Assembly: GCF_030028105.1 (NCBI RefSeq)
Contig: NC_092378.1
Location: 107,559,731-107,623,730, forward strand
Source: Mobula birostris
Taxonomy: Eukaryota
Reading direction: 5' to 3'
Length of the DNA: 64,000 nt
A program made the position numbers and the translations under genes. The stretch's first letter is position 1; each line of letters opens with the position of its first letter. Shown here piece after piece: positions 1-25,900 of this stretch. The notes below the pieces were generated by a model. It searched no databases and was not told the DNA's origin. It was given only the letters and a program-made list of their open reading frames with translations.

Positions 1-409
1 CACCATGACCCCACCAACCTTCCTACAAGTTTGAAATGACAGCTGATAATGATGAGAGGCCATGACAACTTCTCCTATAAGATGAATCATCATGAACTTA
101 ATCTAAACCTCTGATGCCCAACCAGTGGTAGTGCAACCTGTGAGTGTACTTCAATGACACAGACAGCACAGACATTGACTAGACACTTCCATCACAATAA
201 TGAGGTAGGTCTCAAGAGATTACAGATGCTAGAATCTGCAGGCAAAGAACTGAGCTGGAGGTGGAACTCAGTGTGTCAAGCAGTGTTTGAAGAAGGAAAC
301 GGACAGTATGCATTTCTATCAAGACCATTATAAAGAAGTTTTTAGCCTAGCGTCTTGGTCTCAGAAATGTTTTGTTTATGAGATGCAGGATATCAGCTCC
401 ATCAGTGGG

Positions 410-2400
410 TTAAGATAAAGTCAGATGTGTAAGTGTTACAGTGGAGTAAAGGGAATTACAGAGACATGAGAGAGAAGCTGACCAAAGTAGATTACAAGGG
501 GACACTAACAGGGATGATGGCTGGAGATTCTGTGGGCAATTTAGAAGGCACAGGACAGATATATCCCAAATATGCAGAGTATTCTAAAAGGAGGATGAGG
601 CAGCCACGTTCAACAAGAGAAGTCAAAGTCCAAATGAAAGGAATAGAGAGAGCACGTAATATAACAAGTTGTATTAAGTTGGAGAATTGGGAAACTTAAA
701 AACTAACAGAAGGGAAGTGCAAAAAAAATATAAATAGTGAAAAACAGAAATATGAAGGTAAGTAGTTACTAATATAACAGAGGATACCACAGATTTTTAA
801 GATATATAATAAGTAAAAGAGAGTGGATATTGGACTGCTGGAGAAGAATGCTGGAGAGTTTGTAATTGGGGCTAAGAAATGGCTGAAGAACTTAATAAGA
901 TTTTTATGTCAGTCTTAAGCGTGGATTGAAACTAGTGAAAAAGAATCTCGGGGTTGTATGTAGTGACATGTATGTACTCTGATAATAAATTTTACTTTGA
1001 ACTTTGAACTTTTTCATTGTATGCCAGAAATATGAGTGCTGAGGGGAGAAGTGAGTGTAGTTCCTATTACTAAGGAGAAGGTGCTTGGGAATTTGAAAGA
1101 TCTGAAGGTAGATATGCCACCTGGACCAGATGAGCTTCCCCCAGTTCTGTAAGAGATAGATGAAGAGGTTATGGAGGCATTAGTAATTATCTTTCAAAAT
1201 TCTATCAGTCCCTCGAGTTGAACTCTGCTTTTTGTGTGTTTCCTCCTAGCTGTCAGCCTATGGTTTTGTATTGCCATGTGCTCCTGTCTCTGCTCCTGCT
1301 CTACTCCGGTCCCTGTATTACTGAGTACTTTGTGTCTCATCTGTTTCTCATTATTACCTGTATTGCTGCCACCTGTGTCCCATTGTGCTTCACCTATCAT
1401 CTGCCTTTGTTTATTGCTCAGTGTATTTCAGTCCTGTGTTTTCATCTGTTTGTTGTGAGATTGTGCCAGTGAATTTTCCTGATCCTTTCCAGCATTCGCA
1501 TCTGTCTGTCTGAATATTGAGTCTGCCTGTTTCCTGATTCCGGTTTTTGGATTTCTCTGGATGTTTTGATCTCTTCCTGAACTTTGATGCTGACTTTGTT
1601 TGAACCTTGGGATTTGTTACTCAATTAATACCACTGTGTGCACAGTACTGGATTGTGGTTAGATCCCTACTCCAGTGTCCTGGGAGATTTACTATATTCT
1701 GGAATTGTTCTAGAGAATTTGAAATACAAATTTCACTCCACACTTTAAGAAGGGAAGCAGAAGAAAGGAGATTATAGTCCAGTTATTCTGACCTCAGTAA
1801 TTGGAAAGCTGTTGGAGTACATTAATAAGGTTAAGGTCCCAGGGTACTTGAAGGTGAATGATAAAATTCACCAGAGTCATCATAGTTTTCTTAAGGTGAA
1901 ATCTTGCCAGACAAATCCGTTGGAATACTTTATGGAAATAATTGGCAACATGGATAAAGGACAGTCAGTAGATGTTGTTTATTTAGTTTTTCAGAAGGCC
2001 TTTGACAAAGTGCCACACATGAGGCTGCTTAACAAGATAACAGCCCATATAATTACAAGAAAGATATTAGCATTGATAGAAGATTGGCTTGCTGACTGAC
2101 AGGATGCTAAAGTGGGGGGGGGCGGTATAAAGGGGACCTCTTTTGATTAGCTGCCGGTTACTCGTGGTGTTCCATAGGGGGCATGTTGGGATCACTTCAG
2201 TGACTTGGATGTTGGGTAGAGGGCTTGTAGTGCTAAAGAAGCAGGGAGTCTGCAAAAGGAATTAGACAGTTTGGGAGATGGGTAAAGAAGTGGCAGATAG
2301 AACACAGTGCAGGGAAGTGAATGGCTGTGCACTTTGGTAGACAGTATACAGGCAAAGACTATTTTCTAAATGGTTAGAAACTTCAGATATCAGAGGTGCA
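410..2400 (+). mobile_element. Decayed CR1 LINE ORF2 fragments (paralog ~32915-34905)
   Basis: RT fragments such as DVVYLVFQKAFDKVPH and NYRPVSLTS in ORFs 1812..2099 and 34195..34578; many stops. Confidence 0.8.
1203..1688 (+). mobile_element. Putative solo LTR-like insertion inside CR1 (paralog ~33697-34176)
   Basis: A ~480-bp pyrimidine-rich block interrupts the CR1 frame. It ends in ...CCCTGACA in copy B and has repeated CACCTG, resembling fish Gypsy solo LTRs. No clear TSD. Confidence 0.35.
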
Positions 2401-2559
2401 TGCAAATGTAATAGTGCAAGGGAAGGTAATAAAAGAATGCACAATAGTGTTTCAGTTACAAAAAAAAATGTTCACTGCCGATGGACAATAAGGTGCAACT
2501 CTATAATGATGTAGGTTGTTAGATTGACAATTGATTGTGTATTGTAAGTAGGCTATTTC

Positions 2560-3090
2560 AGAGTTGCAAGTTTTAAGTTTGAAGTTAAAAATAAATTTAT
2601 TAACAGAGTACGTAAAGGTCACTATAGAAAACCTTGATTCATTTTCTTTTGGGCATACTTGGTAAATCCAAAAACCATAATAGAATCAATGAAAGATGCA
2701 ACCAATGTGCAAAAGATAACAAACTGTGCATATACAAAAATGAAAAAAAAACAAATAAGCAATAAGTATTGTAAGCATGAGATGAAGAATCCATAGGTTG
2801 TGGGTACTTTTCAGTGATGGGGCGAGTGAAGTTGAATGAAGTTAACTCCACTGGTTGAAGAGCATGTAGGTTGAGAGGTAGCAGTGTTCCTGAACATGGT
2901 GGTGGGGGTCCTGAGGCTTCTGTGCCTCCTTCCAGATGGTAGCAGTGGGATGAGAACATGACCTGGGTGATAGGGGTCCCTGATGATGGTTAATGCTTTT
3001 GTATGACTATGCACTGTGCTGATGTGTGGAATGGAGGAGACAGCTTTACCAGTAATGATCTGAGCCATATCCACTACTTTCATATCCTTT
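2560..3090 (-). mobile_element. Rex1/Babar-like LINE 3' fragment (paralog ~35060-35590)
   Basis: IIRDPYHPGH..LPSGRR motif followed by a 3' UTR with AATAAA and a short-repeat tail. Confidence 0.7.
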
Positions 3091-4418
3091 TATGGTCTTG
3101 TAGCAAATGCAATTAAAGCTATCCTTGAGCCTAATGGTACCTGCTTTTAGGCTTTTTGTGTCTCCTGCCTGATGGGATGGGGAGATAAGAGGGAATGTTT
3201 TGGCAAAGGCAATTGAAGTCTTTTTTTTACATTTAGTGTAAACCCTCACTTCTTATTCAATGTCTAAACACCTAATTCTAGCAATTCTTGTTACAGTTGG
3301 TATATTTATTTAGAAAGTGTGAGTGTTCAACTCCAGGTCCCACAAAATACATCCCATCCATCCCTTATATTCAGCTCTAAGATCCGGGCATAGAAGGGAT
3401 GTAATTGTGGTTCTTTCTCCATGGGTCACCATTTTCTGATTTACTCACAATTCTGAGACAGTGCAGGATCTTTTGCTGGCTACTGTCTGATTTACATCAT
3501 GCTCACAGGCAGTGTATCCAGATGAATATTGGTCAGTACTTTCCCTCTGTTCCTACAACTGCAGTCATTCCTGGCACCAGAGAATAACCAAGTGCTTCCA
3601 TTTCACGGTATCTCCTGTCTCAGAAAACAATTTTAAAAAGCTTAGCTTTATTTGTCACTAGGCCTCTGTTTACTTTCAACATAAGTCCTGTTTTCAGCAG
3701 TGAACTGTGACAGTGCCTCACAGTGATCTGTCCACGTTGGTCTGAGTGTGAAAGACCACAAGCAAAGCTATTGTGGACATTTTTCTTGTTTTAAAGTAGA
3801 CCGTTGTTGGATTTTCATTCCCTCCACCTTTAGTTTTACACTGAAAAATTGTATTACTTTATCGATTCTGTATGCTACAATACATTTTTTTTAGCAAAAG
3901 TGCGGGTGTTAGCTCAGTCATTAAATTTCTTTTATAAAATGTCCCGCTGAATGATAATTAGCTCATTACTCGGTGTAGGCAATCTTTATACATGAATCAA
4001 AACTACATGCTATTGTTGTATAATATTGGTCTAATATGGGATGGCGGTGGGAGAATCGGCGAGGCGTTAATGGATTGTGTGGAAGGATGGATACAGAAAA
4101 TATGAGAGCTTTCGAATTTCTTTGAAGACTTGCAGTTTGTCAATAGATTGAATGGCATCATATCTTGTTCTGAAATGTGAGAAATATGTGAGAAATTGAC
4201 TGTACCTTTCCCCATAGTACAGCATTAGTTTATTTCTAAAGTACTTCAGCAGATGAAAAATGATTTGACCTGTCCTGGGACAGTGAAAGGTCCTACAGCA
4301 CAATGTCTGCTTTTTAACAACAAACCATTGTTCATCTCAACATTGACCAAGTCAAAGATCTTTTAATTTTCATTCTCTAGAGATGAAGAGTTTACCTCTG
4401 TGACAGAAATATTGTTTC

Positions 4419-4424
4419 TTTATT
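4419..4424 (-). terminator. beta-1 polyadenylation signal AATAAA
   Basis: First AATAAA, about 200 nt downstream of the stop; conserved in beta-2. Confidence 0.65.
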
Positions 4425-4624
4425 GAGGAAAAGGGAATGTTTGCAGACATTTTCCAAACATTGAGGAAAATGACCATACAAGGAGGAGTATTGTGCCACC
4501 TTTACATTAGCATGACTTGAACCTGATGCTACACAGGTCCTTTAAGCAAAACACACATTGTAAATGCTGATAATACATGTTTTCATTGCATTTCTGAAGG
4601 TGGTGGAGGATGCAGGTTATAGAT

Positions 4625-5859
4625 TTAATGGTAGTTGCTGGAGAGAGCTTCTGTCACCAGTTTAAAAAACTTGTAGGCAGCTTCATGTTCCTCTGGTCCG
4701 AATCCTTTTTTATCACGAAGAGCGAGTTCAACAATGAAGGCCTGGCTGAGAAGCTGTGAAGAAAAACAATAATTATACAACACTGAAACTAAACTGGAAA
4801 GCAAAGCTCAAACCTCCAATGACTTCTTACCGAATAGCCCAGAAGTCCATGTTGTCCTCTGGGTCGATGTCAGTACTCAGTGGTGCAAACATATAAGTCT
4901 TTTCCCATATCCTTGCCTCATGTGCCCATCAAAGCCCTTTTGATTCTTTTTGACAAACAGTAGCTAATTAACCTGAAGGACAGCAAACTGGAGCAAACTC
5001 TCTACAGACAATACACAATGTGAGGATAATTTCAGCGTCCTTGGGGCAGTGAAGTCAAAAACAATTCTGCATCTGTTAGATGTTGAATAAAGGGAAATCA
5101 AAATCAACTCTCTGGAAAATTTCAAAAGGTCTGCCTTTTGCACAGTGAGCAGATGTGCTCTTTTTGCCTGCAGTTTAGTCCATGATGCTTGGTTGTCATG
5201 TTTGTTATAACTCTGTAATTGAGAAATATCTATAGCACTCCATTTATGAAAATTTGCACATCCTAGAAAGATTGGTGTTTACCTTGAAATTTTGAGTGTC
5301 CACTCCGATTGTTTGATGTTTACTGCTGAGATCATAGAAATTGGTTTCAATACTCTTCAAATCCTCAATTGCAGTGTTCAGAGCCTTCAGCACTTTGTCT
5401 GCATGAGCCTGAACACCAGGGTCACCGGCTGCAAAATGGCCATTGAAATTTTTAAATAGTCTGGTCGTCCAGGGATAGACCGCGAATACCCTAGGAAGAA
5501 AAAAACAAATTGTCCGGTTTCTGTTGTGATAACTTGGAGTTAATTAATTTCTCAAAGCTCATGATTTAGGACTTTTTGATCAAATAAAGAGTTGATTTTC
5601 TGTGGGTTTAACTAGAACCTCAGTGCAGTGTTGAATACTAATTCCCTCACCCAATGACAACATCTAGGCAAGCATAGCAAATTAAAGAGCCTTCACTGGA
5701 ACCATAGTTGAAAATACAGTGCATGATTTAAACATAAAACAGAAAATACATTTTCAACATACAGTACCTTGCCAAGGCTTGGGCAGTTATTGCTTTCTTA
5801 TCCAAATGGTCCCATTTGTTCATGATGTATTGTTCCTGAGCCTTTGTTAATTTCACCAT
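4625..5859 (-). CDS. hbb: Haemoglobin beta chain (copy 1), complement(join(4625..4753,5283..5490,5768..5859)), 142 aa
   Basis: Manual splice and translation gives [146 protein letters not shown] introns sit at canonical globin positions (phase 2, phase 0). It has the VYPWT motif, distal His60, proximal His89 and C-terminal YH. The short CD region (no D helix) is typical of chondrichthyan beta chains. Confidence 0.97.
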
Positions 5860-5929
5860 TTTGGCTGTTGAGCTCTCACTGTCACTGCTCACGCAAGAAA
5901 GCTGTGTTGATCTGGAGTTTTGCCTTCAC

Positions 5930-6005
5930 TTTTATAGGCTCTGAAATGGCTCATCTCAGGCTAAATCGTTACTGTAACAGGCTGATTACTTGATGGGTTG
6001 GGCAC
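5930..6005 (-). promoter_or_regulatory. beta-1 core promoter (TATAAAA 5930-5936; CCCAACCC box ~5995-6002)
   Basis: TATAAAA on the minus strand about 70 nt upstream of the ATG, at the same position as in beta-2. Confidence 0.75.
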
Positions 6006-9000
6006 ACTTTCCAAACGTGGGCTGCAACCCTTCTGTGTTTGTGTGTTAACACTTGCTGAACAATTGCTTGTCTGAGCCTCACTTCTGCCCATCCAACACG
6101 AAGAATAATTCTCCAATTTTGTCAAATATTAATTCAATACATTCATTTTCAAACTGTAGAACTCTCTCCTTGTTAATTGAAGTTCAGCTTTTACACTTTT
6201 TCATTAAATAATACTATTTTTCAAAAATTAATACATTTCTGATGTTGAAATTAAATCCATGACTATTATAATATAGCTTCACTAATGTTCTCATCTGTAA
6301 AGATATGGGATTGTAGCAATGGAAAACTTATGACAAACTTACATCAGTAAATTGAGACAAGATTATTTTGAAATACTGAGCTACAGCAATAATGTGCACT
6401 TCATGGTCCCTGGGGTCTTTCTGACTGATGACTCTGCTATCAAAGTTCACTGGGTAACTAATAGCAATTTGCATCGTCTGTGGGTAGTTTTATGAATTTG
6501 GTAAATGGACACATATGGACAAAGCTCTATTTCTGTTTTGCGTGTCCATTGAATAGAGAACCAGCCATGAGCATTCACGAATTACTGTAGGTGAAGTGTA
6601 AACATGAAAAGACCAATGAGGGAAAATGTGGGTTCACTACGAACAAAGATCGGAGACTTTATAATAGGAAATAATAAAATGGCAGAGGAACTAAACCAAT
6701 GTCTCCTGTCTGCTTAAGTATTGGATTTTCAATAGGCTTTCAATAAGGTTGTGTTCAGAAGATAAACAAGGACAGCTCACATAGAACTTGGGGGTCACTG
6801 TGTCCATTGAGAGTTGTTTAACAAATGGAAAACAGAGTAGAGAAACAGACCCCTCATGGATAGTCAGGCTGCAGCTAATGGGGTCCATCAGGGATCAGTG
6901 CTTTGACCCCAACATTTACAATGTCTGTTAACAGTTTATCTGAGAAGACCTGCTGTAACATTTCCAGATTTGCTGATGATAGAGAACTAATTGGGAATTT
7001 TCTGTTCAGACAGAACTAGAGTATGATATTCAATTCTGGTCACTCATCATTGGAAGGATGTGGAGGCCATGGGGAGGGTTCAGAAGAGGTTTACCAGTGT
7101 GCTGGCTGGATTGGAGGGAATGTGGTATAAGGACAGTGGACAGATGAGAGATGTTTTCACTGGAGTGGAAGAGGGGTAACCTGACAGAACTTTATAAAGT
7201 TATGAGAGGTTTCGATAGACTAGACAGCCAGTGTCTTATTGCCCAGGGTTCAAATGTCTACCACTGGAGGGCTGCATTTATCGTAAGACGGGGAAGTTCA
7301 ATAGGTTTTTTTTAACGGAGCGGTGAGTGTCGTTGCTGTGTTACCATGAGTGGTAGAAGAGGTAGATACGATAGAAGTGTTGAAGAGGCTCCCTGAAAGA
7401 CACATAAAGTGTACAGGGAATGAGGGATATGGATCACATGCAGGTAGAATGGATTAGATGTTGCTAGCTTAATTAGTTTGACTGAAGGGCCTTTTCCTGT
7501 CCTGTGTTGTTCTAGGTTCCAAAACCTTGGTGAAATAACAGAAATGCTATTGTACAAAATTTGATCTTTGCTTTCTAAAAAAGACATACTAGCTCTTAAG
7601 GTGAGCGCAAAGTTTCAAAGGACGGGTCAGAATATCAGATGTGGATGAAAAGCGCAGGTATAGATATAGCCACAAGTACAGCCTGAGCTGTTGAGTAATT
7701 CCAGCATTCTGTTTATGAGGTTTCCAGCATTTGCAAGTGGTTTTGATTGTCAGATGTGAGGGTGCTCACCACTGATAGCACAATGTTCAAATACATTTTC
7801 TACTCAGTAAATGAAGTAGCCCATGCCTTGATACAACAATCCTCATAAAACATTCTACTGTAAGTAGCCGGTATTATTCACATCAGGAAAGTACCAGGTA
7901 ACAACGATCTCCAACAAGATGTCATGCAGACATTGGTCCTTGTGTTCAAGAGCATTCTTATCATTGAGTCCCACCATCAACATCCTGGGCATCTCCACTG
8001 ACCAGGTTCCAAATTTGATCAGATACAGAACTACTCTGGGTGCGTGAACGGGGCAGACACTGGCTATGCAATAGCAAGAGACTCACTAATACCATGGTAA
8101 AAACTTTCCGACTTTCACCAAAGGTACAATTCTGCGTATGATAGAATACACCCCACTTGTCTGAATGAGGACGGCCCCATCAGCACAGAAGAAGCTGCTC
8201 ACCACCATCCACACTTACACACCAGCTTGCTTGAATGTTCCTCCATCAGCCATCCATGCACCCTGTCCTCTCCAGCCACTGCAGCAGTTGTTGCACAAAT
8301 CTGTCCACAACCCCAGCTTCAGCTGCTCTGCTTCTGTATTGTCCCTTTAAGAGACAAAACACAAGGGATCTATTGCTAAATTGATAAATCAGTTTGCTAT
8401 TGTCACATGTACTAAGATAGTCTGAAGCAATAACAGAATGCAGAATAAAGTGTTACTTTTACCAAGAAGATGCAGCGCAAGTTGACAATAAGTTTCAAGG
8501 CCACAATGAGGTAGATTGTGCAGTCGAGAGATCATCTCACTATGGTAATATTCAATACCCTTAGAACTGTGGGGTAGAAGCTGTCCTTGAGCCTACTTGC
8601 ATGTGCTTACAAGCATTTGTATTGTCTACCCTATGGGAGGATGAAGAAGAGAGCATGTCTGGGGTGAGTGGGGTCCTTAATTATGTTGGCTTCTTTAGCA
8701 AGGTGGCAAAAAATGTCGGTAGACTCCATGGAGAGGACGTTGGTTTTTGTTCTGTGCTAAATTTTGGTCACAACTCTGTATTTTCTGCTGATTATTGAGA
8801 GAACAGTTGCCACACCAACCTGTGATGCATTCTATGTTCTATCAATAAAAACTAGTGACGGTCGGATGGGACATGCCAGATTTCTGTAGCCTCCAGAAGA
8901 AACTGAGATTTCTTGGCCATGATGGAACTAGGAGCCTGTTGGTGATATTCACTCCTGGGAACTTGAAGCTCTCAACCTACTTGATCTCAACACCGATGAT

Positions 9001-9662
9001 ATAATCAGGTGTGTGTGCACCACCCACCCTCGTGAAGTCAATCACCAGCTCTTTTGTTTCACTGACATTGAGGGAAAGATTGTTGTCATGACAGAATGTT
9101 ATTAGACTCGTACTTTACTCAGCTTATTGTTACTTGAGATTCGGCTCACTGTGGTGGTATCATTTGTAATGATGGAGTTCGAGCAGAGCCTGACCACACA
9201 GTTGTGAGCGTACAGAGAGTAGAGTAGGGTATTGCTGATGAAGCCTTGTGGGGCACCAGTGTTGAGAATAAGGATGATGGAGGTAATGCTACCTACCCTT
9301 ACTGAGTGTGCTCTGTTGGTTAGGAAGTCAGGTTGTGAGCTGAAGACAGAGTAGTACTGTGAGATTGATGGACCTCTGTTCATGTGCTCATTCTGAAGCT
9401 GAAACAGCATGTTACAACTCTAGAGAGTCACCAGCATGATTTACAGTGGGACACATTACATACTGAGTCTATGTTTACTTGATTTAAATAACACTAGAGA
9501 GACATAGTTTACTAGTTTTGCACATGAAAATGCAGGAAAGGAATTTCTCAGAGTTGTTTCATTGTAAGTCAGAGGCTTTGCTTGGAGAAACTTCAGTGAG
9601 GAAGTTGACCAAGGGTCAGGTAAGATGAAGTGAGATCTTTTCCATCCGTCCATAGTCTTAGT

Positions 9663-9880
9663 AGCCGGCTGGTGGCGTAGTGGCATGAGCGCCGGACTTC
9701 GGAGCGAAGGCTCCCGAGTTCGAACTCAGCCGGCTCCCCAGGCACGCTTTCCATCTGTGCTGGGTTGAGCGTCAAGCTAGCAACTTGTAAAAAAAAATTG
9801 CCTGCTACAGAAACATCAACAGCAAAAAGTTGCTGGCCTATGCTCTCTCGTGAGTTTAGAAGGCAATTTCCTTTTCCTTC
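9663..9880 (+). mobile_element. tRNA-derived SINE with 10-bp TSD TAGTCTTAGT (9653-9662 / 9881-9890)
   Basis: Pol III A box TGGCGTAGTGG and B box GTTCGAACTC. The empty site TAGTCTCAGT is at 47281-47290 in copy B. Confidence 0.88.
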
Positions 9881-9964
9881 TAGTCTTAGTTGTTTAGGGA
9901 TGGCCGTCAGGACAGTTGTGCGTACACCCTGCAGAACGTGGAAGGTCAGGGAAACTTCCATGGT

Positions 9965-10826
9965 AACACACATCAAAGTTGCTGGTGAACGCAGCAGGCC
10001 AGGCAGCATCTCTAGGAAGAGGTACAGTCGACGTTATGGGCCGAGACCCTTCGTCAGGACTAACTGAAGGAAGAGCTAGTAAGAGATTTGAAAGTGGGAG
10101 GGGGAGGGGGAGATCCAAAATGATAGGAGAAGACAGGAGAGGGAGGGATGGAGCCAAGAGCTGGACAGGTGATTGGCAAAAGGGATATGAGAGGATCATG
10201 GGACAGGAGGCCCAGGGAGAAGGAAAATGGGGAGGGGTGTAAAACCCAGAGGATGGGCAAGGGGTATAGTCAGAGGGACAAAGGGAGAAAAAGGACAGTG
10301 AGAGAAAGAATGTGTGTATATAAATAAATAACGGATGGGGTACGAGGGGGAGGTGGGGCATTAGCGGAAGTTAGAGAAGTCAGTGTTCATGCCGTCAGGT
10401 TGGAGGCTACCCAGATGGAATATAAAGTGTTGTTCCTCCAACCTGAGTGTGGCTTCATCTTTACAGTAGAGGAGGCCGTGGATAGACATATCAGAATGGG
10501 AATGGGATGTGGAATTAAAATGTGTGGCCACTGGGAGATACTGCTTTCTCTGGCAGCCAGAGCATAGGTGTTCAGCAAAACAATCTCCCAGTCAGCATCG
10601 GGTCTCGCCAATATATAGAAGACTACATCGAGAAGACCGGACACAGTATATCACCCCAGCTGACTCACAGGTAAAGTGTCGCCTCACCTGGAAGGACTGT
10701 CTGGGGCGCTGAATGGTGGTAAGGGAGGAAGTGTAAGGGCATGTGTAGCACTTGTTCTGCTTACAAGGATAAGTGCCAGGAGGGAGATCAGTGGGGAGAG
10801 ATGGAGGGGACGAATGGACAAGGGAG
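9965..10826 (-). mobile_element. Penelope-like element 3' part (GIY-YIG endonuclease + 3' end) with 9-bp TSD TTCCATGGT
   Basis: Minus-strand translation FTCESAGVIYCVRSSRCSLLYIGETRC*LGDCFAEHL is GIY-YIG-like. TSD at 9956-9964 and 10827-10835; empty site at ~47357-47365. Confidence 0.88.
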
Positions 10827-12147
10827 TTCCATGGTTCCTGGTGATTATATCTGTGGGAGATGTGTTCAGTTGTGGTTCCTGACTGACTGCATAGAGTGAC
10901 TGGGGCTGTAGATGAAACAAAAGGATGAGATACTGCAGAGGGAATTGAGAGAGATGGGTAGAAAGTTAAAAAGTAGGAGCAGTAGGGTTATAATCCCTGG
11001 GTAACTCCATGTGCTGTGTTGTAGTGAAAAAGGGAATAGCAGGATAGGGCTGACGAATGTGGAGCTGATGAACTGGTGCAGGGCGACACACACCTCGAGA
11101 TGGTGGGATATCTTCCAGGACCGAGATCACTTTTACAAGAGGGACACATTGCAATAGGCTTCCTGATGGAGAAAATTGCTAGAATTACGTGAATGGATTT
11201 GAACAAGTTGAGCAGGATATGGATCCCAAAGTAGTTACGCAATCAATGAAAAAGCTGGAGTAAGTATAGAGGTTAAAGTGAAAAACTCCAGCCAGCAGGA
11301 GCAGGACAAAGAGCGAGGAAGGTCTGACAACCTAAACTGCAAGTAGCCTGATAGGCTGATGATTTCAGAGCACCTTTGGCATGTGGGATTGTGATATTAT
11401 ATCTCTTACAGAAACATGATACATTGAGTGGATATCATTTGTTTGGATTTTCAAAAAGCCTTTAACAAGGTCTGGCACACAATGCTGCTACTCTGGATAA
11501 GAGATAAAGTACAAGTATAGATAGAAATGTGGTTGATTGCCAGAAGTCAAAGATTGGGGATAAGATGGTGCTTTTCACAATGGCTGCTCGTAACTTTTGG
11601 AATTCCACAAGGGTCAGTGTTAGATTTCTGGCATTTCACCTTATACAATAATGATCTGGATGAAGAAAATTATGATGTTGTGGCTACATTTGATAAGTTG
11701 AAGAACAGGCAATATCCCAGAGACAGGAAGCCTGCAAAATGACCTGGAGAGGTTGGGAGGTTGGGCAAAGAATAAGCAGATGGAATGTAGAATAGGAAGT
11801 GTGGGGTTATACACATTGGTAGGAAGAACAAAAGACTATTTTGTAAATGAGGAGAAAATTCAGAAAGCAGAGGTGTAAAGTTACTTGCGATTCCTAATCC
11901 TGAATTCCCTCAAGGTTAATTTACAGGTTGAGTTAATAGCAAACAAGACAAGTGCAATATTAACATTCATTTTGGGAGGATTAGAATATAAAAACAGATA
12001 CGTAATGCTGAGGCTTTATAGTCATGCAGAATGATGCAAGAACCTCAGGCACATATATGTATAGCTAGGGTGTCAAAGGCTTTTGCAAAGGACTGTATTT
12101 CTCAATAAGGAGCAGAGAGCAAGTTTGTGGATCTCGAGGAACTAATA

Positions 12148-12968
12148 TCAGAATTAGAATCAGGTTTATTGTCACCAGCATGAGAAGTGAAATTTGTTAA
12201 CTCAGCGGCAGCAGTTCAATGCAATACATAATCTAGTGGGGGAAAAAGAATAATAATAAATAAAATTTTAAAAAATAAACAAATAAATCAATTACGTATA
12301 TTAAATTCATTTTTTAAAAACATGCAAGAACAGAAATACTGTGCATTTTTTTAAAAAGTGAGGTAGTGTTCAAAGATTCAATGTCCATTTAGGAATCGGA
12401 TGGCAGAGGGGAAAAAGCTGTTCCTGAATTGCTGAGTGTGTGCCTTCAGGCTTCTGTACCTCCTACCTGATGGTAACAGTGAGAAAAGGGCATGCCCTGG
12501 GTGCTGGAGGTCCTTAATGATGGACACTACTTTTCTGAGACACCGCTCCCTCAAGATGTCCTGGGTACTTTGTAAGCTAGTACCCAAGATGGAGCTGACT
12601 AGGTTTACAACCTTCTGCAGCTTCTTTTGGTCCTGTGCAGTAGCCCCTCCATACCAGACAGTGATGCAGCCCGTCAGAATGCTCTCCACGGTACAACTGT
12701 AGAAGCTTTTGAGTGTATTTGTTGAATTGCCAAATCTCTTCAAACTCCTAATAAAGTATAGCCACTGTCTTGCCTTCTTCATAACTACATCAATATGTTG
12801 GGACCAGGTTAGATCCTCAGAGATCTTGACACCCAGAAACTTGAAGCAGCTCACTCTCTCCACTTCTGATCCCTCTATGAGGATTGGTATGTGTTCCTTC
12901 GTCTTACCCTTCCTGAAGTCCACAATCAAGTCTTTCGTTTAACTGACGTTGAATGACAGGTTGTTGCT
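12148..12968 (-). mobile_element. Rex1/Babar-like LINE 3' fragment, copy A only
   Basis: ORF 12378..12929 (IVDFRK..FKFLGV..LYFIRSL..HPGH..LPSGRR) with a TCTGAT-type tail; absent at ~48480 in copy B. Confidence 0.8.
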
Positions 12969-14375
12969 GCAATTTTGGGTCCTTTCTCCAAGGAAGGGTG
13001 TAGTAGATTGGAAGGGATCCAGAAATGCATAAGAAAGGTCTTAGGAATAAATGGCTTGACATTTGAGAAGAGTTTGATGTCTCTGAGCCTGTACTCAGTG
13101 GTGTTCAGGAGGATGAGGGGCTATCTCAATGAAAACTATCAGAGACTGAAAGGCCTGGACAGAGTGGATGTGGAGAGAATGTTTCCATTAGGAGGAGATA
13201 CTTGGATCCAAGGGCATGCCCTCAGAATTTAGACTTGTCCCTTTAAAAGAGCTAAGGAGGAATTTCTTCAACCAAAGTGTAAAAAGAGGACATGGGATAT
13301 CCTTGACAGATAAGGTGGAGATGATTCTTCACAGGTTCTGTGCATATTAATGGAAAAAGGGGAAAAGGCAGTGAGTATTTCCCCTTTAGGATCAGTGCAG
13401 CAAAGTATGTCGGGGTTACAAATGAAGGATAAAGTTTTAGATGTGTATTCTCATCTGTACTTACTGTGGCAAAGGATATGAAACCGGGTAAGTTTAGGGA
13501 AATTTTCAATGATATTCTGAAGCATTTTGAAGTATAAAAGAGGAGGCAATTGCAGATGAAACTCAAAATAGTCTATATATCCCCAAGATACTGATATCAA
13601 GCTGCTCTGGTCACAGAAAGATAATTTGCATCTTTGAGTGGACTTCCAGCAATTGCATTGCAGGAAATTTTGGAATTACTTAAACCAACTGAACGGTCCA
13701 TCAGTGTTCCAGATTGGAAAAATGAATTCCTCTATTCATAATGATCTTGAAAAAGACAATAATGATGATTTTATCGCATTTAAAATTGGATGTTGAATTC
13801 TTATAACGTGATTGAATATATTAATATAAAAACATAACAAAATACTTTTTCAGGATTAAGTTTTAAGGAGAGCCTGAATTACCTTTCACATTTTCCCTGG
13901 ACTGTAGGAGACTGAGGGGTGAGCTGACAGAGTTGTATATGATCATGAGGGCATAAATGGATGATCATAGTCTTTATCCGAGTGTAGGGGAGTCTAAAAC
14001 TGAACAATGTGGTTATCTGGTGAAAGGGAAAAGATTTAAAAGACATCTGGCAGGAAAACTTCTTCTCACAGAGAGGTGAGTGTAATAAATTTGGTGGGAG
14101 AACAGGCTGTAGAAACAGGAACAAAGTGAGGAAATGGGACTAGGTCAGACAGACATTGGTAGGCATGGATGAGCTTGGCTGAATGGCCTGTTTCCATATT
14201 GAACAACTCTGCAACTCTATTTATCTATATTTTACATGTAAAGCTTGCTTTATGCAGTGAGTCATGATATGTTGCTGAATGTATAAACGTGTTACAGCGA
14301 GATTTTGATCTCCTATTTCAGTTATTTGCTTTTCAGAAATCTCTGCTGTGAACTTGATTCATTTAGAATGGGGAA

Positions 14376-17300
14376 AGGTACAGATAGGAGGTTCTGTGGT
14401 TGTGACAGAGAATCCAGGATGGTTTGTTCCCTCCCAGGTGCCAGGGTCAAGGATGTCTCTGATCGATTGCATGACATTCTGAAGTGGGAGGGTGACCAGC
14501 CAGATGTCATGGTGCACATTGGTACCAATGACGTAGCAAGGAAGAGTGAGGAGGTCCTGGACAGTGAGTATAGAGAGCTTGGTAGGAAGTTGAAAAGCAG
14601 GACCTCAAGGGTGGTAATGTCAGGATTGCTACCTGTGCTCGGTGCCAGTGAGGGTAGGAATAGGATGCTCTGGAGGAGGAACAAGTGGCTGAGGAACTGG
14701 TGTAGGGGGCAGGGTTTCAGATTTCAGGATCATTGGGACCTATTCTGGGGCAGGTGGGACCTGTACAAGAGAGACGGGTTACACTTGAACTACAGGGGGA
14801 CCAATATCCTTTCAGGGAGGTTTGTTAGTGCTATTGGGAAGGCTTTAAACTAGATTTGCAGGGGGATGGGAACCAGAGTGCCAGAGCTGACAGTGTGGCT
14901 GGGGTGAAAATAAATGATGTTGAAAGTTTAAGCAAATCCGCTGATAGAAAGGTTGTGAGTGGTGGTAAAAATCTTCTGAGGTGTATATATTTCGATGCTA
15001 GGAGTATTGCGGGGAAGGCGGATGAGTTGAGGGCGTGGATTGACACGTGGAATTATGATGTTGTAGCATTAGTGAAATTTGGCTACAGGAGGGGCAGGAC
15101 TGGCAGCTTAATATTCCAGGGTTCCGATGTTTCAGATGTGATCGAGGCAGAGGAATGAAAGGTGGGGGAGTAGCGTTGCTTGTTAGGGAAAATATTACAG
15201 CAGTGCTCAGGCAGAACAGATTAGAGGGCTTGTCTACTGAGTCCTTATGGGTGGAGCTGAGAAACAGGAAAGGTATGGCCACATTAGTGGGATTGTATTA
15301 CAGACCACCCAATAGTCAACGAGACTTGAAAGAGCAAATCTGCAGAGAGATAGCAGGCAATTGCAGGAAACATAAAGTTGTGGTGGTAGGGGATTTTAAT
15401 TTTCCATACATTGATTGGGACTCCCATACTGTTAGGAGTCTAGATGGTTTAGAGTTTGTAAAATGTGTTCAGGAAAGTTTTCTAAATCAATATATAGAGG
15501 GACCAACTAGAGAGGATGCAATATTGGATCTCCTGTTAGGAAATGAATTAGGGCAAGTGACAGAAGTCTGTGTAGGGGAGCACTTTGGTTCCAGTGATCA
15601 TAACGCCATTAGTTTCAATTTGATCATGGACAAGGATAGATCTGGTCCTAGGGTTGAGGTTCTGAACTGGAAGAAGGCCAAATTTGAAGAAATGAGAAAG
15701 GATCTAAAAAGCGTGGATTGGGACAGGTTGTTCTCTGGCAAAGATGTGATTGGTAGGTGGGAAGCCTTCAAAGGGGAAATTTTGAGAGTGCAGAGTTTGT
15801 ATGTTCCTGTCAGGATTAAAGGCAAATTGAATAGCAATAAGGAACCTTGGTTCTCAAGGGATATTGCAACTCTGATAAAGAAGAAGAGGGAGTTGTATGA
15901 AATGTATAGGAAACAGGGGGTAAATCAGGTGCTTGAGGAGTATAAGAAGTGCAAGAAAATACTTAAGAAAGAAATCAGGAGGGCTAAAAGAAGACATGAG
16001 GTTGCCTTGGTAGTCAAAGTGAAGGATAATCCAAAGAGCTTTTACAAGGGTATTAAGAGCAAAAGGATTGTAAGGGATAAAATTGGCCCTCTTGAAGATC
16101 AGAGTGGTCGGCTTTGTGTGGAACCAAAGGAAATGGGGGAGATTTTAAATAGGTTTTTTGCGTCTGTATTTACTAAGGAAGCTGGCATGAAATCTATGGA
16201 ATTGAGGGAATCAAGTAGTGAGACCATGGAAACTGTACAGATTGAAAAGGAGGAGGTGCTTGCTGTCTTGAGGAAGATTAAAGTGGATAAATCCCCAGGA
16301 CCTGACAGAGTGTTCCCTCGGATCTTGAAGGAGACTAGTGTTGAAATTGCGGGGGTCCCGGCAGAAATATTTAAAATGTCGCTGTCTACGGGTGAAGTGC
16401 CGGAGGATTGGAGAGTGGTTCATGTTGTTCCATTGTTTAAAAAAGGATCGAAAAGTAATCCGGGAAATTATAGGCCGGTGAGTTTAACGTCAGTAGTAGG
16501 TAATTTATTGGAGGGAGTACTAAGAGACAGAATCTACAAGCATTTGGATAGACAGGGGCTTATTAGGGAGAGTCAACATGGCTTTGTGCGTGGTAGGTCA
16601 TGTTTGACCAATCTGTTGGAGTTTTTCGAGGAGGTTACCAGGAAAGTGGATGAAGGGAAGGCAGTGGATATTGTCTACATGGACTTCAGTAAGGCCTTTG
16701 ATAAGGTCCCGCATGGGAGGTTAGTTAGGAAAATTCAGTCGCTAGGTATACATGGAGAGGTGGTAAATTGGATTAGACATTGGCTCAATGGAAGAAGCCA
16801 GAGAGTGGTGGTAGAGAATTGCTTCTCTGAGTGGAGGCCTGTGACTAGCGGTGTGCCACAGGGATCAGTGCTGGGTCCATTGTTACTTGTCATCTATATC
16901 AATGATCTGGATGATAATGTGGTAAATTGGATCAGCAAATTTGCTGATGATACAAAGATTGGAGGTGTAGTAGACAGTGAGGAAGGTTTTCAGAGCCTGC
17001 AGAGGGACTTGGACCAGCTGGAAAAATGGGCTGAAAAATGGCAGATGGAGTTTAATACAGACAAGTGTGAGGTATTGCATGTTGGAAGGACAAACCAACG
17101 TAGAACATACAGGGTTAATGGTAAGGCACTGAGGAGTGCAGTGGAACAGAGGGATCTGGGAATACAGATACAAAATTCCCTAAAAGTGTTGTCACAAGTA
17201 GATAGGGTCATAAAGAGAGCTTTTGGTACATTGGCCTTTATTAAGGTATTGAGTATAAGAGCTGGAATGTTATGATGAGGTTGTATAAGGCATTGGTGAG

Positions 17301-17857
17301 GCCGAATCTGGAGTATTGTGTTCAGTTTTGGTCACCAAATTACAGGAAGGATATAAATAAGGTTGAAAGAGTGCAGAGAAGGTTTACAAGGATGTTGCCG
17401 GGACTTGAAAAACTCAGTTACAGAGTAAGGTTGAATAGGTTAGGACTTCATTCCCTGGAGCGTAGAAGAATGAGGGGAGATTGGATAGAGGTATATAAAA
17501 TTATGATGGGTATAGATAGGGTGAATGCAAGCAGGCTTTTTCCATTGAGGCAAGGGGAGAAGAAAACCAGAGGACATGGGTTAAGGGTGAGGGGGGAAAA
17601 GTTTAAAGGGAACATTGGGGGGGCTTCTTCACACAGAGAGTGGTGGGAGTATGGAATGAGCTGCCAGATGAGGTGGTAAATGCAGGTTCTTTTTTAACAT
17701 TTAAGAATAAATTGGACAGATACATGGATGGGAGGTGTATGGAGGGATATGGTCCGTATGCAGGTCAGTGGGAATAGGCAGAAAATGGTTCGGCACAGCC
17801 AAGAAGGGCCAAAGGGTCTGTTTCTGTGCTGTAGTTTCTATGGTTCTATGGTTCTAT
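14376..17857 (+). mobile_element. Young 5'-truncated CR1 LINE: partial ORF1 (SGNH esterase) + ORF2 (APE endonuclease-RT) with ~3 frameshifts; (TTCTATGG)n tail
   Basis: ORF1 has GTND and DGLHLN motifs. ORF2 has GDFN, SDH, FSKAFDKVPH, GVPQGSVLGP and FADD, with a 706-aa open stretch at 15155..17275. Empty site at ~52615-52630 in copy B. Confidence 0.95.
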
Positions 17858-18072
17858 AAGTAATTGCCATACAAACAGACAATTGTTGGCTCAATGTTTT
17901 TATGTCCAAGTTCTTTCTCCACTTTATTGTTATCAAGTGATAGTGGTAAACACACCCTGCAGTATTGTTTGTTTTCTTGCTAATAGACAAATTGACAGGT
18001 ATTTTTTCTGAAATTAAGTACATTTAATACATTCATGCACAGCAAGCGATAAAGCATTGATTGAAGTGAAAG

Positions 18073-18078
18073 TTTATT
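18073..18078 (-). terminator. alpha-1 polyadenylation signal AATAAA
   Basis: About 100 nt downstream of the stop; conserved in alpha-2. Confidence 0.7.
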
Positions 18079-18174
18079 TAACTCAGTTTTTCAATTATGA
18101 CAATTAATCAAAGACAAACTGTGGAATTAAATGATGATCTTGTGGTCGTTCATCAAAATTTGTTGGTTGTGTCT

Positions 18175-19127
18175 TTAGCGGTACTTGGAGCTCAATTCAT
18201 GTGCGAGCAACTCAAGGAACTTGTCGACAGCACAGTGGGTTGCTGGGGAGAATGCAGGCAAGTGAATGGCCAGAGTGACCGTGATACAATCAGCCAACAG
18301 CTGTAAAAGTGAAAAATAAATAACATAAGGCAGTGTTGATATTGTCAATGGATGATTTTACCCATTAAACAAGTGTTGCTTCTTTGTACTTTGACTGCCT
18401 TCCTATGTATCGTGTAGCAGGAAAAAGTATTCCCAGCTAAACTGAACAAGACTACACTTCAAGACCACTGAAATTTCAACTAAATAAAGTTGAAAGTTCA
18501 GGATTGCTGAACTAATTACAATAACATAGTTTGTGTAATGACAATGAGGAAGAATCTGTAAAGCTGTTACATACCTGAAAGTTGTGAGGATCCACAAGAA
18601 GTTCTTCACCATGTCTCTTGGCAAGCTTTTCCAGGTGTTTACTCAGGTTGTCCACGTTATGGGCTGCATCCGCCACAGCTTCCATGACAATGCGACCATG
18701 TCTTCTGACAGGCTGGTCAGAGGCTTTGTAGCCATTGAAATTTGGGAAGTATGTCTTAGCTTGAGGATGGATCTCAAACAACCTTCACAAACATGGAAAA
18801 TGAAGGCAGGAATTATTTGCAGACACAATATACACTACATCTCACAGGATTAAATTCTGTTATTCTTCAGACCAGCAATCATGTTATTTTGGAAAAGCTT
18901 CAATTCTATGCAGAGAATGTCTTTGTAGATTTATTAGTGGTCTCACTGTTCAAGAGAAATGCAAAGAAATGTTAACGATTACAAATAATAGCTGAAAATG
19001 CATTAATTATACTATGAACCTAAAAAGGTTACCTGGCTAAAGCATCTGCACCCCAAGCTTCAGCATTTGCCTTGATGTGGTTGCCCAGCTCCTCTATAAC
19101 CTGTTTGTTGGGGCCAGAGAGTACCAT
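18175..19127 (-). CDS. hba: Haemoglobin alpha chain (copy 1), complement(join(18175..18300,18575..18782,19033..19127)), 142 aa; extra in-frame ATG at 19128-19130
   Basis: Translation: MVLSGPNKQVIEELGNHIKANAEAWGADALAR/LFEIHPQAKTYFPNFNGYKASDQPVRRHGRIVMEAVADAAHNVDNLSKHLEKLAKRHGEELLVDPHNFQ/LLADCITVTLAIHLPAFSPATHCAVDKFLELLAHELSSKYR*. Alpha-type KTYF, VDPxNF and C-terminal KYR; GT-AG introns. Confidence 0.97.
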
Positions 19128-19193
19128 CATTACAGAGTTCTCACTTTTTCAGATCTCTCATTGACCAGGAGATGCCTCTGGCTTGATGTGTCC

Positions 19194-19316
19194 ATATTTA
19201 TTGTAATTCACACTGAGCCACACCCTCTCCACCCCACTTTTCCCATTGGTTGTGGGTCCTGATTCATGGTCTACGTAATCTAATGATAAAAGACAACATT
19301 GAATAGAGAGCCAATC
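19194..19316 (-). promoter_or_regulatory. alpha-1 erythroid promoter: AATAAATAT TATA-like 19194-19202, KLF1-type CCACACCCT 19218-19226, CCAAT 19245-19249, TGATAA 19284-19289, second CCAAT 19311-19315
   Basis: Classic globin promoter motif set (TATA/CACCC/CCAAT/GATA), conserved in alpha-2. Confidence 0.8.
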
Positions 19317-20039
19317 GTCTGTTTCACATACAACTGTTAGCAAAGATATCCTGTTCCAGAGAAGCTAAACACTACCTACAGACATTTCATTTGACGCACA
19401 ATTGTAAAGGTTTAGTTTATTGCCATATAAGTTATCAGTAAATGAACATTAATATTCATTAATCAATATGCTTTACCAAACTAACTCTGATATAATAAGT
19501 TTAATTCATTTTGTTGTTACTTTGGGCTGAATCACCTATTGAAATTCATCCTCCTCACCCTCGGTCTTTTTATTTCACAACTGTTTAACCTCAGTGTACG
19601 GGGAGACATGGTTTTCCAAAATTCACAAAACACTGCACAGAACTGACTGGACAGAATGAATGATAATGTAGCCATATTGGACCAGGAAGTGTGTAGGTCT
19701 AAAATCACGTAAATGAAGAGTATTAGCACGCCGCTGAAGGATTTGTTTATGCACAGGTGATGGAAGGTGTAACGTGTCAGGACGACCACGGCAACTTTGG
19801 AAAATTGGTCTGGAATTTCATAGACATGGGTGATCTGAGCTGATGTTACAGGGACATCTAGAGAAGAAAAGTCAGCCACAAGCTCAGCTCAGTAGAAGGT
19901 TACAGGCCTGACCAAACAGAGACTGATGAATTCAGTGGTCTGATATTAGAGTTGAGCAGGCATAGTCAATGTTTTTGTTCTTCACAAATCTTAGATAGCG
20001 CAAAATTCCACTCCATCATTGCCAGACATCAAGTAACCA

Positions 20040-21180
20040 GCGTGACTGAGCAGAAGCATTAGAAGAGTCAGTGGAGTTGCAAAGAATCAGCATTAAGGAG
20101 TTGGAGCTCGAACTGCATGAACTCCAGATCACTTGGGATGCTGAAGGAGTGATAGATAGGACATAAAGAGAAATAGTTACACCCAAGGTTCAGGACACAG
20201 GAACCTGGGGGACAGTCAGGAAGGGGAACGAGGTTACGGAGTCAGTGTTGAGTACTTTGTGGCCAACCCCCTCAACGATCGCTTTGGATACTCTTGGGGG
20301 TAGGTGTTGACCTAACAGAGGAATGTCGTGGTCGGGTCTCTGGCACTGAGTCCAGAGGCACTGAGGAATAGATAGGAAGTTCTGTGGGTAAGAACAAGAT
20401 TCTTGGATGGTATGTTGCCTCCCAGGTGCCAGGGCCCGGGATATCTCAGACTGAGTCCTCTGCATACTTAAATGAGAGGGTGAACTTAACTGGTTGTGGT
20501 CCATGTAGTTACCAATGACATGGATAGAATGTGCAATGAGGTTCTGCATAGCGAGCACAGGGTGTTAGGTGTTAAGTTAAAGGGCAGGACCTCTAGGGTC
20601 ATGATCTCAGGATTGCTACCTATGCCACATGCTAGTGAGGCCGGAACTAGGAAGATTATACAGTTTAAAACATGTCTACGGAGTTGGTGTAGGAGGGAGG
20701 GCATAAGATTTTTGGAACACTGTACTCTCTTTCAGGGAAGGTGGGACCTGTACAGAAGAGGTAGTTTGTGCCTCAACTGGAGGGAGACTAATGTTCCAGC
20801 AGGAAAGTTTGTTAATGTGGGGTTTAAACTGGAGTTGCAGGGGGTTGGGAACCAGAGCGTCAGAACAGTTAGCAGAGAGATCGTGGAGGCAGATGTCGGT
20901 AAGATCTCAGACAAAGTTTGGAATCAAAAGTATGTCAGCATGGTACGACAAGTGTCTTGAACTGTGTATTGTTTAATGCAAGAAGTATCATAGGAAAGTC
21001 AGATGATTATGCAGGAGATGAGGTAGATGGTTTACAAAGAGAGGCACTGTGTAGTGAGGAGAGACAAAATTGCAGTGAACAGCATGAGTTGCAACATATA
21101 AGGTGGACAAAATTGAAAAGGTTGAATACAGGACTGAAGGTGTTATAATTGAATATGCTCTGTATACAGAATAAGGTAGA
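20040..21180 (+). mobile_element. Older CR1 fragment (ORF1 esterase region and ORF2 start)
   Basis: VHVVTND..SGLLP..WDLY motifs in ORF 20496..20960; similar to 14376-15000. Confidence 0.8.
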
Positions 21181-21181
21181 T

Positions 21182-22110
21182 CAGTGTTTCCCACCCTTTT
21201 TTAGCCAAACGTCCCCCCTAAAGCACCTTCATAACTGTCAACACCCCCCTTAAGCAAAATATACTTTCTGATGCCCCCATAGTGTAAGAACATGTCTACC
21301 ATGTGCTAACATGAGGAAAATGATTCCACTTTAAATTTTTATTTATCTTTATAGCCTGCTTACTCATTACCTGTGCACTGTACAGTAGCTTCAATATTAA
21401 TGTGATCCTTGAGTTTGATGGTTTTTAGTAAGAGTTGAAGCAACTGGTTCAAGTTGTGACAGCAAAAACCTTAAGTCCCCATGTGTAACAATGTCCAAAT
21501 GGTTTCTGTTTTTTGTGAATACATGGTTTGCTGCGCTAAAGCCTCTTTCAACAAGGTAAGAGGATGGAAATCCAAGGAAGAGCAGTTTGGCTCTTCTCCA
21601 AAGACCAGGAAATTTCGTATGACTGTGTACCACATACCACAAAAGCTGACATTTTTGAAAAGCATTTTTGTCTCTTCATCATTCTGAATTTCTATAATTT
21701 CTTCTTGCAAGCTCTCTTCCTGTTCTTCTGTCTTGCAAAGGAATGGGTTAGTTACTCAATCAGGAAATTGCAGATTGTTCAAATCCTTGAATCCACTCTG
21801 AAAATCCTTCTTCAGTGACTGAAGTTGTAAGCAATACTCTTGTAAATTACCATCTGGGAAAGAAAGTGCCACACTTCCCCTGCAGGGAAACTGTGAGAAC
21901 ATTCTTCTCCCAATGTTTTGCTTATGTATTTCCAAGCTTTCGATACTTTTTGCCTGGATTAAGTTGAAATTTTCACCCTACAGTTTCATATTCAGAATGT
22001 TAATTTCATCATACAGATTGGCTAGGTATGCCACATCTCCATGTAGAAGATCGATCTCGTGTTACCACCTCCCCAAGAATCTTGAATGTCTCCCGGTGAT
22101 TTCTATTTCC
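21182..22110 (-). mobile_element. hAT (Charlie/Buster-like) DNA transposon 3' fragment
   Basis: C-terminal dimerisation-domain-like FPSSYLVERGFS..NRNHL..DLRFLLS..HQTQGSH; CAGTGTTTCCCA TIR-like end at 21182. Confidence 0.8.
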
Positions 22111-25100: not shown

Positions 25101-25419
25101 CCAGTAAGTGCGTTTGGCAGGAGTTCCCTCTACAAGCTGATAGGAGGCAATAGAGTATATAAAGTTAGACTTTCTTTGTATATGATCCTTGACCTAACTC
25201 TCTGTCACCTGTTGTAGGATAGGTAGTACTAATTTGAGGATGATATTTCCATGAATTGACATTCCTTCTCACCTTCCCCATTCTGATGAGGTGGAGTGTT
25301 CTGTTCTTGGCAAGGACTTAACCTTTTTCCCCTCCAGCCGCACCTCAGTCATTCCATAGCAGCCACAATGCCGAGATCTTCTTCTGTTGTCTCTGTCTCC
25401 AAGACCACTTCTTTGGCAA

Positions 25420-25900
25420 GAATTCCACGGGCTGCTGCAAGGGATCGAAATAAGCTCCAGAGAGTTGTAAACTTAGTCAGCTCCATTATGGGCACTGCCC
25501 TCCCCTTCCCTCCCCCACCCCCGTGGTATCCAGGACATCTTCAAGGAGGATGCCTCACCAAGGCGACATCATCATTTAGAACCCCCATCACCCAGGTCAT
25601 GCTTGTTCTCATTGCGACCATCAGTAGGGAGGTACAGAAGCCTGAAGGTACACACTCAGTGATTCAGGAACAGCTTCTTCCCCTCTGCCATCCGATTTCT
25701 GAATGGACATTGAACCCAGGAACACTACCTCACTACTTTTTTATTTCTATTTTTGCACTACTTATTTAATTTAACCATTTAATATATATACTAACTGTAA
25801 TTCACATTTTTTCTATTATTTTGCATTGAATTATACTGCTGCCACAAAAACAACAAATCTCACGACATATGTGGGTGATATTAAAATTGATTCAGATTCT
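25420..25900 (+). mobile_element. Rex1/Babar-like 3' fragment
   Basis: KLQRVVNLVSSI motif and 3' UTR homologous to 12148-12700. Confidence 0.7.

Follow-up and report, generated by a model that had tools for sequence, protein, structure and literature searches.

A β-globin gene of the giant manta ray Mobula birostris as a probable anti-Lepore hybrid with its junction in intron 2

Introduction

Chimeric globin genes are a textbook product of unequal crossover and gene conversion. The closest described systems are mammalian. The chimeric β-type genes reported in 2014 (PMC4041002) are intact, take their 5′ part from the downstream paralogue and their 3′ part from the upstream one, are fixed in a lineage and carry crossover and conversion in layers; a parent was often lost or inactivated. 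The same paper treats the interparalog conversion from HBB to HBD, by which tandem β genes are homogenised in patches, and human Hb Lepore, a hybrid produced by unequal crossover.

In rays, Walt et al. 2026 (PMC13023373) listed the genes studied here, considered the co-linear α-β pair as the basic unit and described duplications that the giant manta has in common with the lesser devil ray. As far as the text and supplement consulted go, whole-protein trees were used in that work, and gene conversion was raised in general terms and for sharks only; in its main text the mosaic described below is unmentioned, the words ‘Lepore’, ‘mosaic’ and ‘unequal’ occur 0 times, and ‘chimeric’ is found in two reference titles only. 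In the literature searched, subscription papers being outside its scope, we found no report of a chimeric globin gene in a cartilaginous fish. The mechanism considered here is known, the lineage is new, and the genes themselves are already annotated.

Results

Two tandem α-β units

The window, by which we mean the whole 64-kb stretch of Mobula birostris DNA analysed, contains a direct duplication revealed by self-alignment (1-19810 against 32506-54567), interrupted by indels. It holds two tandem units, each with one α and one β globin gene, all on the minus strand; all four genes have three exons and intact frames, and are located as follows:

4625-5859, minus strand: β-1 globin gene, the proposed hybrid (exons 5859-5768, 5490-5283 and 4753-4625; intact 142-aa ORF)
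37929-39230, minus strand: β-2 globin gene, the proposed donor of the 3′ part (exons 39230-39139, 38874-38667 and 38057-37929)
18175-19127, minus strand: α-1 globin gene, internal control without a 3′ step
52934-53872, minus strand: α-2 globin gene

Compared by eye with the supplementary alignment of PMC13023373, the β-1 protein shows no difference from giant manta HbB 140203428, nor the β-2 protein from HbB 140203430; α-1 matches HbA 140203429 (the annotation has one additional N-terminal Met) and α-2 matches HbA 140203431. The gene IDs, of which we use the last three digits, increase along the window positions from 428 to 431, a monotonic order verified for these four only. Exon 2 of β-1 found as its best PDB match the stingray chain 1cg5_B (Hemitrygon akajei, E 5e-26), and in the protein search it also matched Mobula β-like chains. 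With three exons, GT-AG introns, an intact ORF and β-chain similarity, the gene has the features of a batoid haemoglobin β chain. An additional in-frame ATG lies immediately before the start of α-1 (19128-19130) and is absent from α-2. Two cysteines are present in β-2 (codons 53 and 113) and none in β-1; C113 (window 38021) stems from a CpG transition and is absent in the lesser devil ray orthologue.

The homology of the units ends just upstream of the α promoters (19810 and 54567), and the stretch 19811-32505 has no colinear match within 54567-64000, where four repeat matches only were observed. A LINE with a 738-aa endonuclease/reverse transcriptase frame (Pfam RVT_1, Exo_endo_phos), which we take to be CR1-like, lies 3′ of α-1 only (~14287-17696), and a different, decayed LINE is present in unit 2 only (~41828-44815). 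A young dispersed repeat occurs in three copies that are 89-94% identical (9965-10497, 26088-26603 and 61563-62012).

Three levels of divergence and a break in intron 2

The two β genes and their surroundings differ at three levels: ~16% on the 5′ side of a break in intron 2, 7.5% throughout the 3′ flank as far as the window reaches, and only 0.7% within 4203-4789. A preliminary description of this DNA, based on hand counts, had already reported 6/92, 18/208 and 1/129 differences in exons 1, 2 and 3, and these counts are exact; for the ~420 non-coding nucleotides after the stop, where about 4 differing sites had been claimed, our recount gave 3/420. The sharp drop of identity placed between ~4950 and ~5000 was recovered as well: the best single break is at 4953, with a support interval of 4930-4968, and on non-coding columns this break improved the log-likelihood by 87 over no break. 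The upstream flanks, estimated as 80-85% identical, differ at 219/1312 positions in 5860-7200 (16.7%) and at 776/4146 (18.7%) in nine farther colinear blocks. For the 3′ flank, an identity of 92-95% holds overall (1-4202, 306/4146, 7.4% divergence) but not evenly, since single blocks range from 3.8% to 12.9% and an 813-nt indel is present. A uniform identity over the gene in a proper alignment, named beforehand as the outcome contrary to a mosaic, was not seen. The optimal partition of 1-7200 separated 1-4105 at 7.5%, 4106-4936 at 1.3% and 4937-7200 at 16.1%; these three segments were obtained under the two stricter of three penalties, the laxest subdividing the first segment further. A sharp recombination junction inside β-1, as found at 4953 (4930-4968), is expected of an anti-Lepore hybrid. 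The regions concerned are:

4930-4968, unstranded: main breakpoint interval in intron 2 of β-1 (~38235-38272 in β-2)
4953-19810, unstranded: old-layer part of unit 1, with the 5′ half of β-1, the spacer, and α-1 with its promoter (~15-19% non-coding divergence from 38260-54567)

At synonymous sites β-1 and β-2 differ by 11.5/60 in exons 1-2 and by 0/27 in exon 3, and the difference between exon 3 and exons 1+2 is significant (Fisher p=0.0025). The α pair, which was duplicated in the same event as the β pair, served as control and shows no step: pS is 0.19, 0.14 and 0.20 in exons 1, 2 and 3, and the non-coding divergence is 14.5% and 10.8% in the introns, 10.1% in the 3′UTR and 19.7% in the 3′ flank. 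The 3′UTRs of the β and α pairs differ in this respect with Fisher p=0.0002.

Trivial sources of the levels were considered and discarded. The steps persist when CpG sites are removed (0.5%, 6.7% and 15.9%), so that CpG hypermutability does not produce them; the counts on the 3′ side are unchanged under three other gap settings, against an alignment artefact; and a false duplication of haplotypes is contradicted by the 16-19% divergence and the unit-specific LINE insertions, far above allelic levels.

The promoter and 5′UTR of the β genes (5860-5999 against 39231-39371) differ at 28/140 positions (20%), at or above the neutral level, and the α promoters (19128-19327 against ~53873-54072) at 15/200 (7.5%; Fisher p=0.0008 against the β promoters). 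β-1 and β-2 may be regulated differently.

The near-identical core around exon 3

The lowest level of divergence is confined to a short tract:

4203-4789, unstranded: near-identical core (4/587 differences), spanning the last part of intron 2, all of exon 3 and the 3′UTR, and ~200 nt past the first AATAAA (4424)
37507-38093, unstranded: counterpart of the core in the β-2 unit

Its longest identical run is 288 nt (4264-4551), and the partition search broadens it to 4106-4936 (11/820). In none of 20000 column permutations within 1-4950 did a 587-column window show 4 differences or fewer, the minimum being 13. The core is bounded on both sides by higher divergence, with 4/587 lying between 23/534 and 7/161, as expected of interlocus conversion. 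Just past the 420 post-stop bases the copies differ by two indels, one of 1 nt (4202) and one of 11 nt (4175-4185), and the whole of 4132-4202 has zero substitutions and these two indels only. Two AATAAA signals (4424 and 4234, minus strand) are found downstream of both β genes; the 11 nt at 4175-4185, just past the second one, are a tandem duplication in β-1 only.

The near-identity of exon 3 had been taken as a sign of recent conversion, and on this point the preliminary description has to be corrected: a count of 1/129 would be surprising under the old divergence (P=0.0004), but under the 4-7% seen in the exon's own flanks it is not (P=0.09-0.33), so that the evidence for recent conversion is the non-coding core and not exon 3. 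With regard to GC-biased fixation, the GC content is 0.38 in the core and 0.39 in the flank. Searches for a hidden RNA gene gave no Rfam match and no tRNA at the core, no ORF of at least 120 aa indicative of an overlapping protein gene was found over 4030-5282, and within the window the core has no repeats apart from its paralogue.

Selection had been judged a poor explanation of the non-coding similarity, and indeed selection alone fails to explain the pattern. A narrower version, in which one crossover was followed by strong purifying selection that preserved exon 3 together with the 3′UTR and a 3′ regulatory element, would dispute only the later conversions of the history proposed below, and we regard it as improbable. 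A constraint as strong as in the α promoters, acting over all 422 non-coding bases with a local background of 4.3%, would give P(≤3 differences)=0.038, and exon 3 alone is unremarkable; a constraint like that of the α 3′UTR, instead, gives P≤0.005, one WGATAR site only is present in 4106-4624, the core extends ~200 nt past the first AATAAA, and long identical runs occur also in the repeat-derived flank.

The position of the second AATAAA (4234-4229), which the strict core includes by ~26 nt at its left end, together with the return of the intron to the local background past 4790 (7/161), would fit a core copied from a reverse-transcribed β-globin mRNA with exon 3 and a long 3′UTR. This origin is nevertheless very improbable, as 4132-4202 lacks substitutions, the partition edges at 4106 and 4936 lie outside any transcript end or exon boundary, the patches in the flank would go unexplained and expression in the germline would be required. 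We give just as little credit to a collapse or polishing artefact of the assembly, which had been named as a possible refutation: it is conceivable if confined to the 288-nt identical run, but the core contains 4 substitutions and the 7.5% layer hundreds, and a second species has the same exon-3 pairing in the published protein alignment.

The 3′ flank

Beyond the core, the intermediate level of divergence extends over the following regions:

1-4105, unstranded: repeat-rich 3′ flank of β-1, 7.5% from the β-2 flank, with no left boundary within the window
32506-37419, unstranded: matching 3′ flank of β-2, including an 813-nt segment (~36160-36972) absent from β-1

The 813-nt segment contains an inverted match of ~120 nt (74%) to 3293-3413 and its counterpart. 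Much of the β 3′ flank is repeat-derived, with copies of roughly 70% elsewhere in the window. These repeat-derived pieces, presumably neutral, are only 2.3-12.8% apart, and selection is therefore no explanation of the 7.5% layer. Divergence varies along this flank (chi2 p=8e-7), the upstream flank being uniform (p=0.91), and the 3′ flank contains identical runs of 160 nt (2254-2413), 139 nt (2778-2916) and 128 nt (213-340), the longest with P=0.00065; the same run test gave weaker excesses in the old region (P=0.024) and in the α pair (P=0.015), where exons and promoters are included. When differences in the flank were polarised with third repeat copies, the derived states in β-1 and β-2 were 19:7, 30:20, 6:8 and 2:2, and no direction was indicated.

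The similarity to the upstream parent runs through the 3′ flank to the window edge (7.5%, 1-4105), as in an anti-Lepore duplication. An anti-Lepore crossover would account for a similarity with an abrupt onset in intron 2 that is still present after 4.9 kb. Over the 4.9 kb visible the old divergence does not reappear: the most divergent block of 1-4202 stands at 12.9%, short of 16%. For comparison, the mean tract of human non-allelic conversion is 250 bp in the part of the source consulted (10.1101/135152), and the similarity at the β 3′ end is far longer. One crossover alone is insufficient, however, since divergence along the flank is uneven, with 11.6% in 1042-2253.

The same observations bear on conversion without change of copy number, in which one tract of at least 5 kb, or many overlapping short tracts, would have carried the 3′ end and flank of β-2 into β-1. 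The patchy divergence of the flank (0-13%) and the several long identical runs in repeat-derived DNA speak for it, and in the passages of PMC4041002 consulted Gaudry et al. noted that the same chimeric pattern can arise by conversion or crossover. On the other hand, no left boundary appears in 4.9 kb and no block is back at 16%, and every tract would have to end at the same point of intron 2. We consider conversion alone a less probable course of events.

The mosaic among paralogues and in a second species

The paralogue set was taken from the supplement of PMC13023373, in which the protein alignments were read by eye; unless stated otherwise, the comparisons below are of this kind. The β series of Mobula hypostoma, the lesser devil ray, pairs with that of the manta as 422/319, 425/321, 428/323, 430/325, 432/328 and 435/332. 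In exons 1-2 the distances from 428 to 422, 425, 430, 432, 434 and 435 are 9, 4, 11, 6, 11 and 6 aa, so that among these six close manta paralogues 425 is the nearest to β-1 and 430 is joint farthest; in exon 3 the same distances are 5, 4, 1, 4, 3 and 4 aa, with 430 now nearest. The hypostoma gene 323 behaves in the same way: its distance to 321 is 3 aa in exons 1-2 and 4 aa in exon 3, and its distance to 325 is 14 and 0 aa, respectively. G117 is present in 4/13 close Mobula genes, exactly 428, 430, 323 and 325. Distances computed on stored proteins agree: M. hypostoma P0005 (=325) differs from β-2 by 2 aa in exons 1-2 and 1 aa in exon 3, and from β-1 by 13/100 and 0/42.

The original suggestion of an ectopic recombination that broke within intron 2 is supported. 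That the nearest paralogue changes along the gene, and does so in both species, was read by eye from the published protein alignments; as the mosaic is present in the two species at the protein level, it is not due to an artefact, and the junction would predate their split. The α partners point in the same direction in hypostoma, where 324 is nearest to 322 (2 aa; next 4), and less cleanly in manta, where 429 lies at 3 aa from both 426 and 140202433 and at 7 aa from 431; α S119 also occurs in 140202432. Conversion alone would need a separate duplication for the closeness of 428/429 to 425/426.

Separate trees for exons 1-2 and for exon 3, proposed in the preliminary description, were run as protein trees of 11 stored sequences, which lack 425 and 323; these trees are underpowered and count neither for nor against the hybrid. 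On exons 1-2, forcing β-1, β-2 and P0005 together was not rejected (p-AU 0.29) and no ingroup branch was starred; on exon 3, a clade of β-2, P0005 and Hypanus P0006 was rejected with an identical row left free (p-AU 0.032). By computed distance, P0006 is 5 aa from β-2 and 11 from β-1, and shares the β-2-type exon 2.

The exon-3 tree is one of the points in favour of the same junction read in the reverse direction, with β-2 (430) as the chimera and exon 3 and the 3′ flank coming from the β-1 lineage. The stingray orthologues of β-2 (132398830 and 140735106) have R119+V126, as Mobula 425 and 435; Mobula β-2 has G119+A126, as most stingray β-1-type genes, and R113/G119/A126 of 428 and 430 are present in 7/10 close stingray genes. 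The stingray pattern may favour β-2 as recipient, or an earlier swap or older hybrid. However, among the five manta genes with β-1-like exons 1-2 (G53) H113+V126 is found in four, and only 428 matches its neighbour 430; stingrays polarise poorly, their exon 3 being apparently homogenised separately (N139 in 10/10, S139 in 13/13 Mobula); and the informative residues are only 2-3. We hold this direction to be unlikely.

When 425/428 are compared with 321/323, residues 13 and 23 group by species and not by locus, and so does residue 28 in α 322/324, a pattern to be expected if young duplicates kept exchanging sequence. On a larger scale, Q18, G62 and N139 are present in 10/10 close stingray β genes, and H or L18, D62 and S139 in 13/13 close Mobula genes. 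This split crosses paralogue types that seem older than the stingray/Mobula split, and suggests a lineage-wide patchy homogenisation in all three exons.

A rough calibration was obtained from one gene, GbY, by counting synonymous differences by eye in its first 399 nt, over ~85 sites. The two Mobula species show 4 synonymous differences (~4.7%, interval 1.8-11.5%), and manta and Atlantic stingray ~10 (~12%, interval 6.5-20.3%). On this clock the data suggest that the 7.5% layer falls between the Mobula and the stingray splits and that the core is younger; the 16-19% layer would predate the stingray split, consistent with the β-2-type exon 2 in Hypanus P0006. The literature searched, including the part of PMC5101608 consulted, yielded no date for the birostris/hypostoma split, and the inferred ages are relative only.

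Discussion

Where a gene is similar to its downstream neighbour in the 5′ part and to its upstream neighbour in the 3′ part, and both neighbours are present, the arrangement is anti-Lepore in the sense of PMC4041002, and from its sequence β-1 is probably a member of such a duplication. The history that we favour, with some confidence, is an unequal crossover in intron 2 by which ~33 kb were duplicated and a hybrid of anti-Lepore type came to lie between the two parent genes, followed by short conversions that made the core. On a background of an old tandem duplication of α+β, preceding both steps, two misaligned β genes would have crossed over in intron 2 before the split of giant manta and lesser devil ray. 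The crossover would have duplicated ~33 kb and given three genes, in transcription order 430 (intact), 428 (hybrid) and 425 (intact, outside the window), the position and orientation of the last being deduced from the order of the gene IDs. The hybrid 428 would have received its α partner, promoter and exons 1-2 from the 425 lineage, and exon 3, 3′UTR and 3′ flank from the 430 lineage. Later, the young duplicate arms would have kept exchanging short conversion tracts, producing the 0.7% core and the identical patches of 128-160 nt. Crossover rather than long conversion, and its direction, are what we infer from these patterns. The unit implied is:

4953-38260, unstranded: putative ~33-kb unit between the two intron-2 junctions; its repeat, at young divergence, is predicted to the left of the window, only the first ~5 kb being comparable inside it

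The original proposal of one recent event that homogenised the 3′ end stands in part: recency seems to apply only to the core (0.7-1.3%) and to a few patches of the flank. A single recent event does not fit, as the intron-2 step is part of the 7.5% layer and the lesser devil ray orthologues have the mosaic too in the published alignment. A Lepore-like hybrid, arising by deletion, is contradicted by the persistence of both parental types, β-2 being intact in the window and 425 annotated in the same species.

A broader picture can be sketched tentatively. Intron 2 of β-globin may be a recurrent exchange point in stingrays and devil rays, with exons 1-2 (together with promoter and α partner) and exon 3 (with the 3′UTR) possibly reshuffled as semi-independent modules along the tandem array, with a polarity opposite to that of mammalian conversion; 428 would be a fixed anti-Lepore hybrid that in two species coexists with both of its intact parents, and 430 and 425 older hybrids of the same kind relative to stingrays.

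If our reading holds, whole-protein trees of batoid β-globins mix two histories and may misassign orthology. It would also help to choose between gene turnover and concerted evolution, left undecided in the text of PMC13023373 consulted. The anti-Lepore reading makes a prediction testable by one alignment of public assemblies.

Set beside the known systems, as far as PMC4041002 was consulted, β-1 would resemble the mammalian chimeric β-type genes in being an intact chimera, with its 5′ part from the downstream and its 3′ part from the upstream paralogue, apparently fixed in its lineage and layered by crossover and conversion. It differs from them in that the ray unit also carries an α gene, the junction lies in intron 2, and the annotations of two species list each putative parent as an intact gene. 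The patchy homogenisation recalls the HBB-to-HBD conversion, but with reversed polarity, the 3′ rather than the 5′ end being homogenised. With human Hb Lepore it would share a hybrid origin by unequal crossover; the Lepore chromosome, however, loses both parents, whereas in manta both parental types persist.
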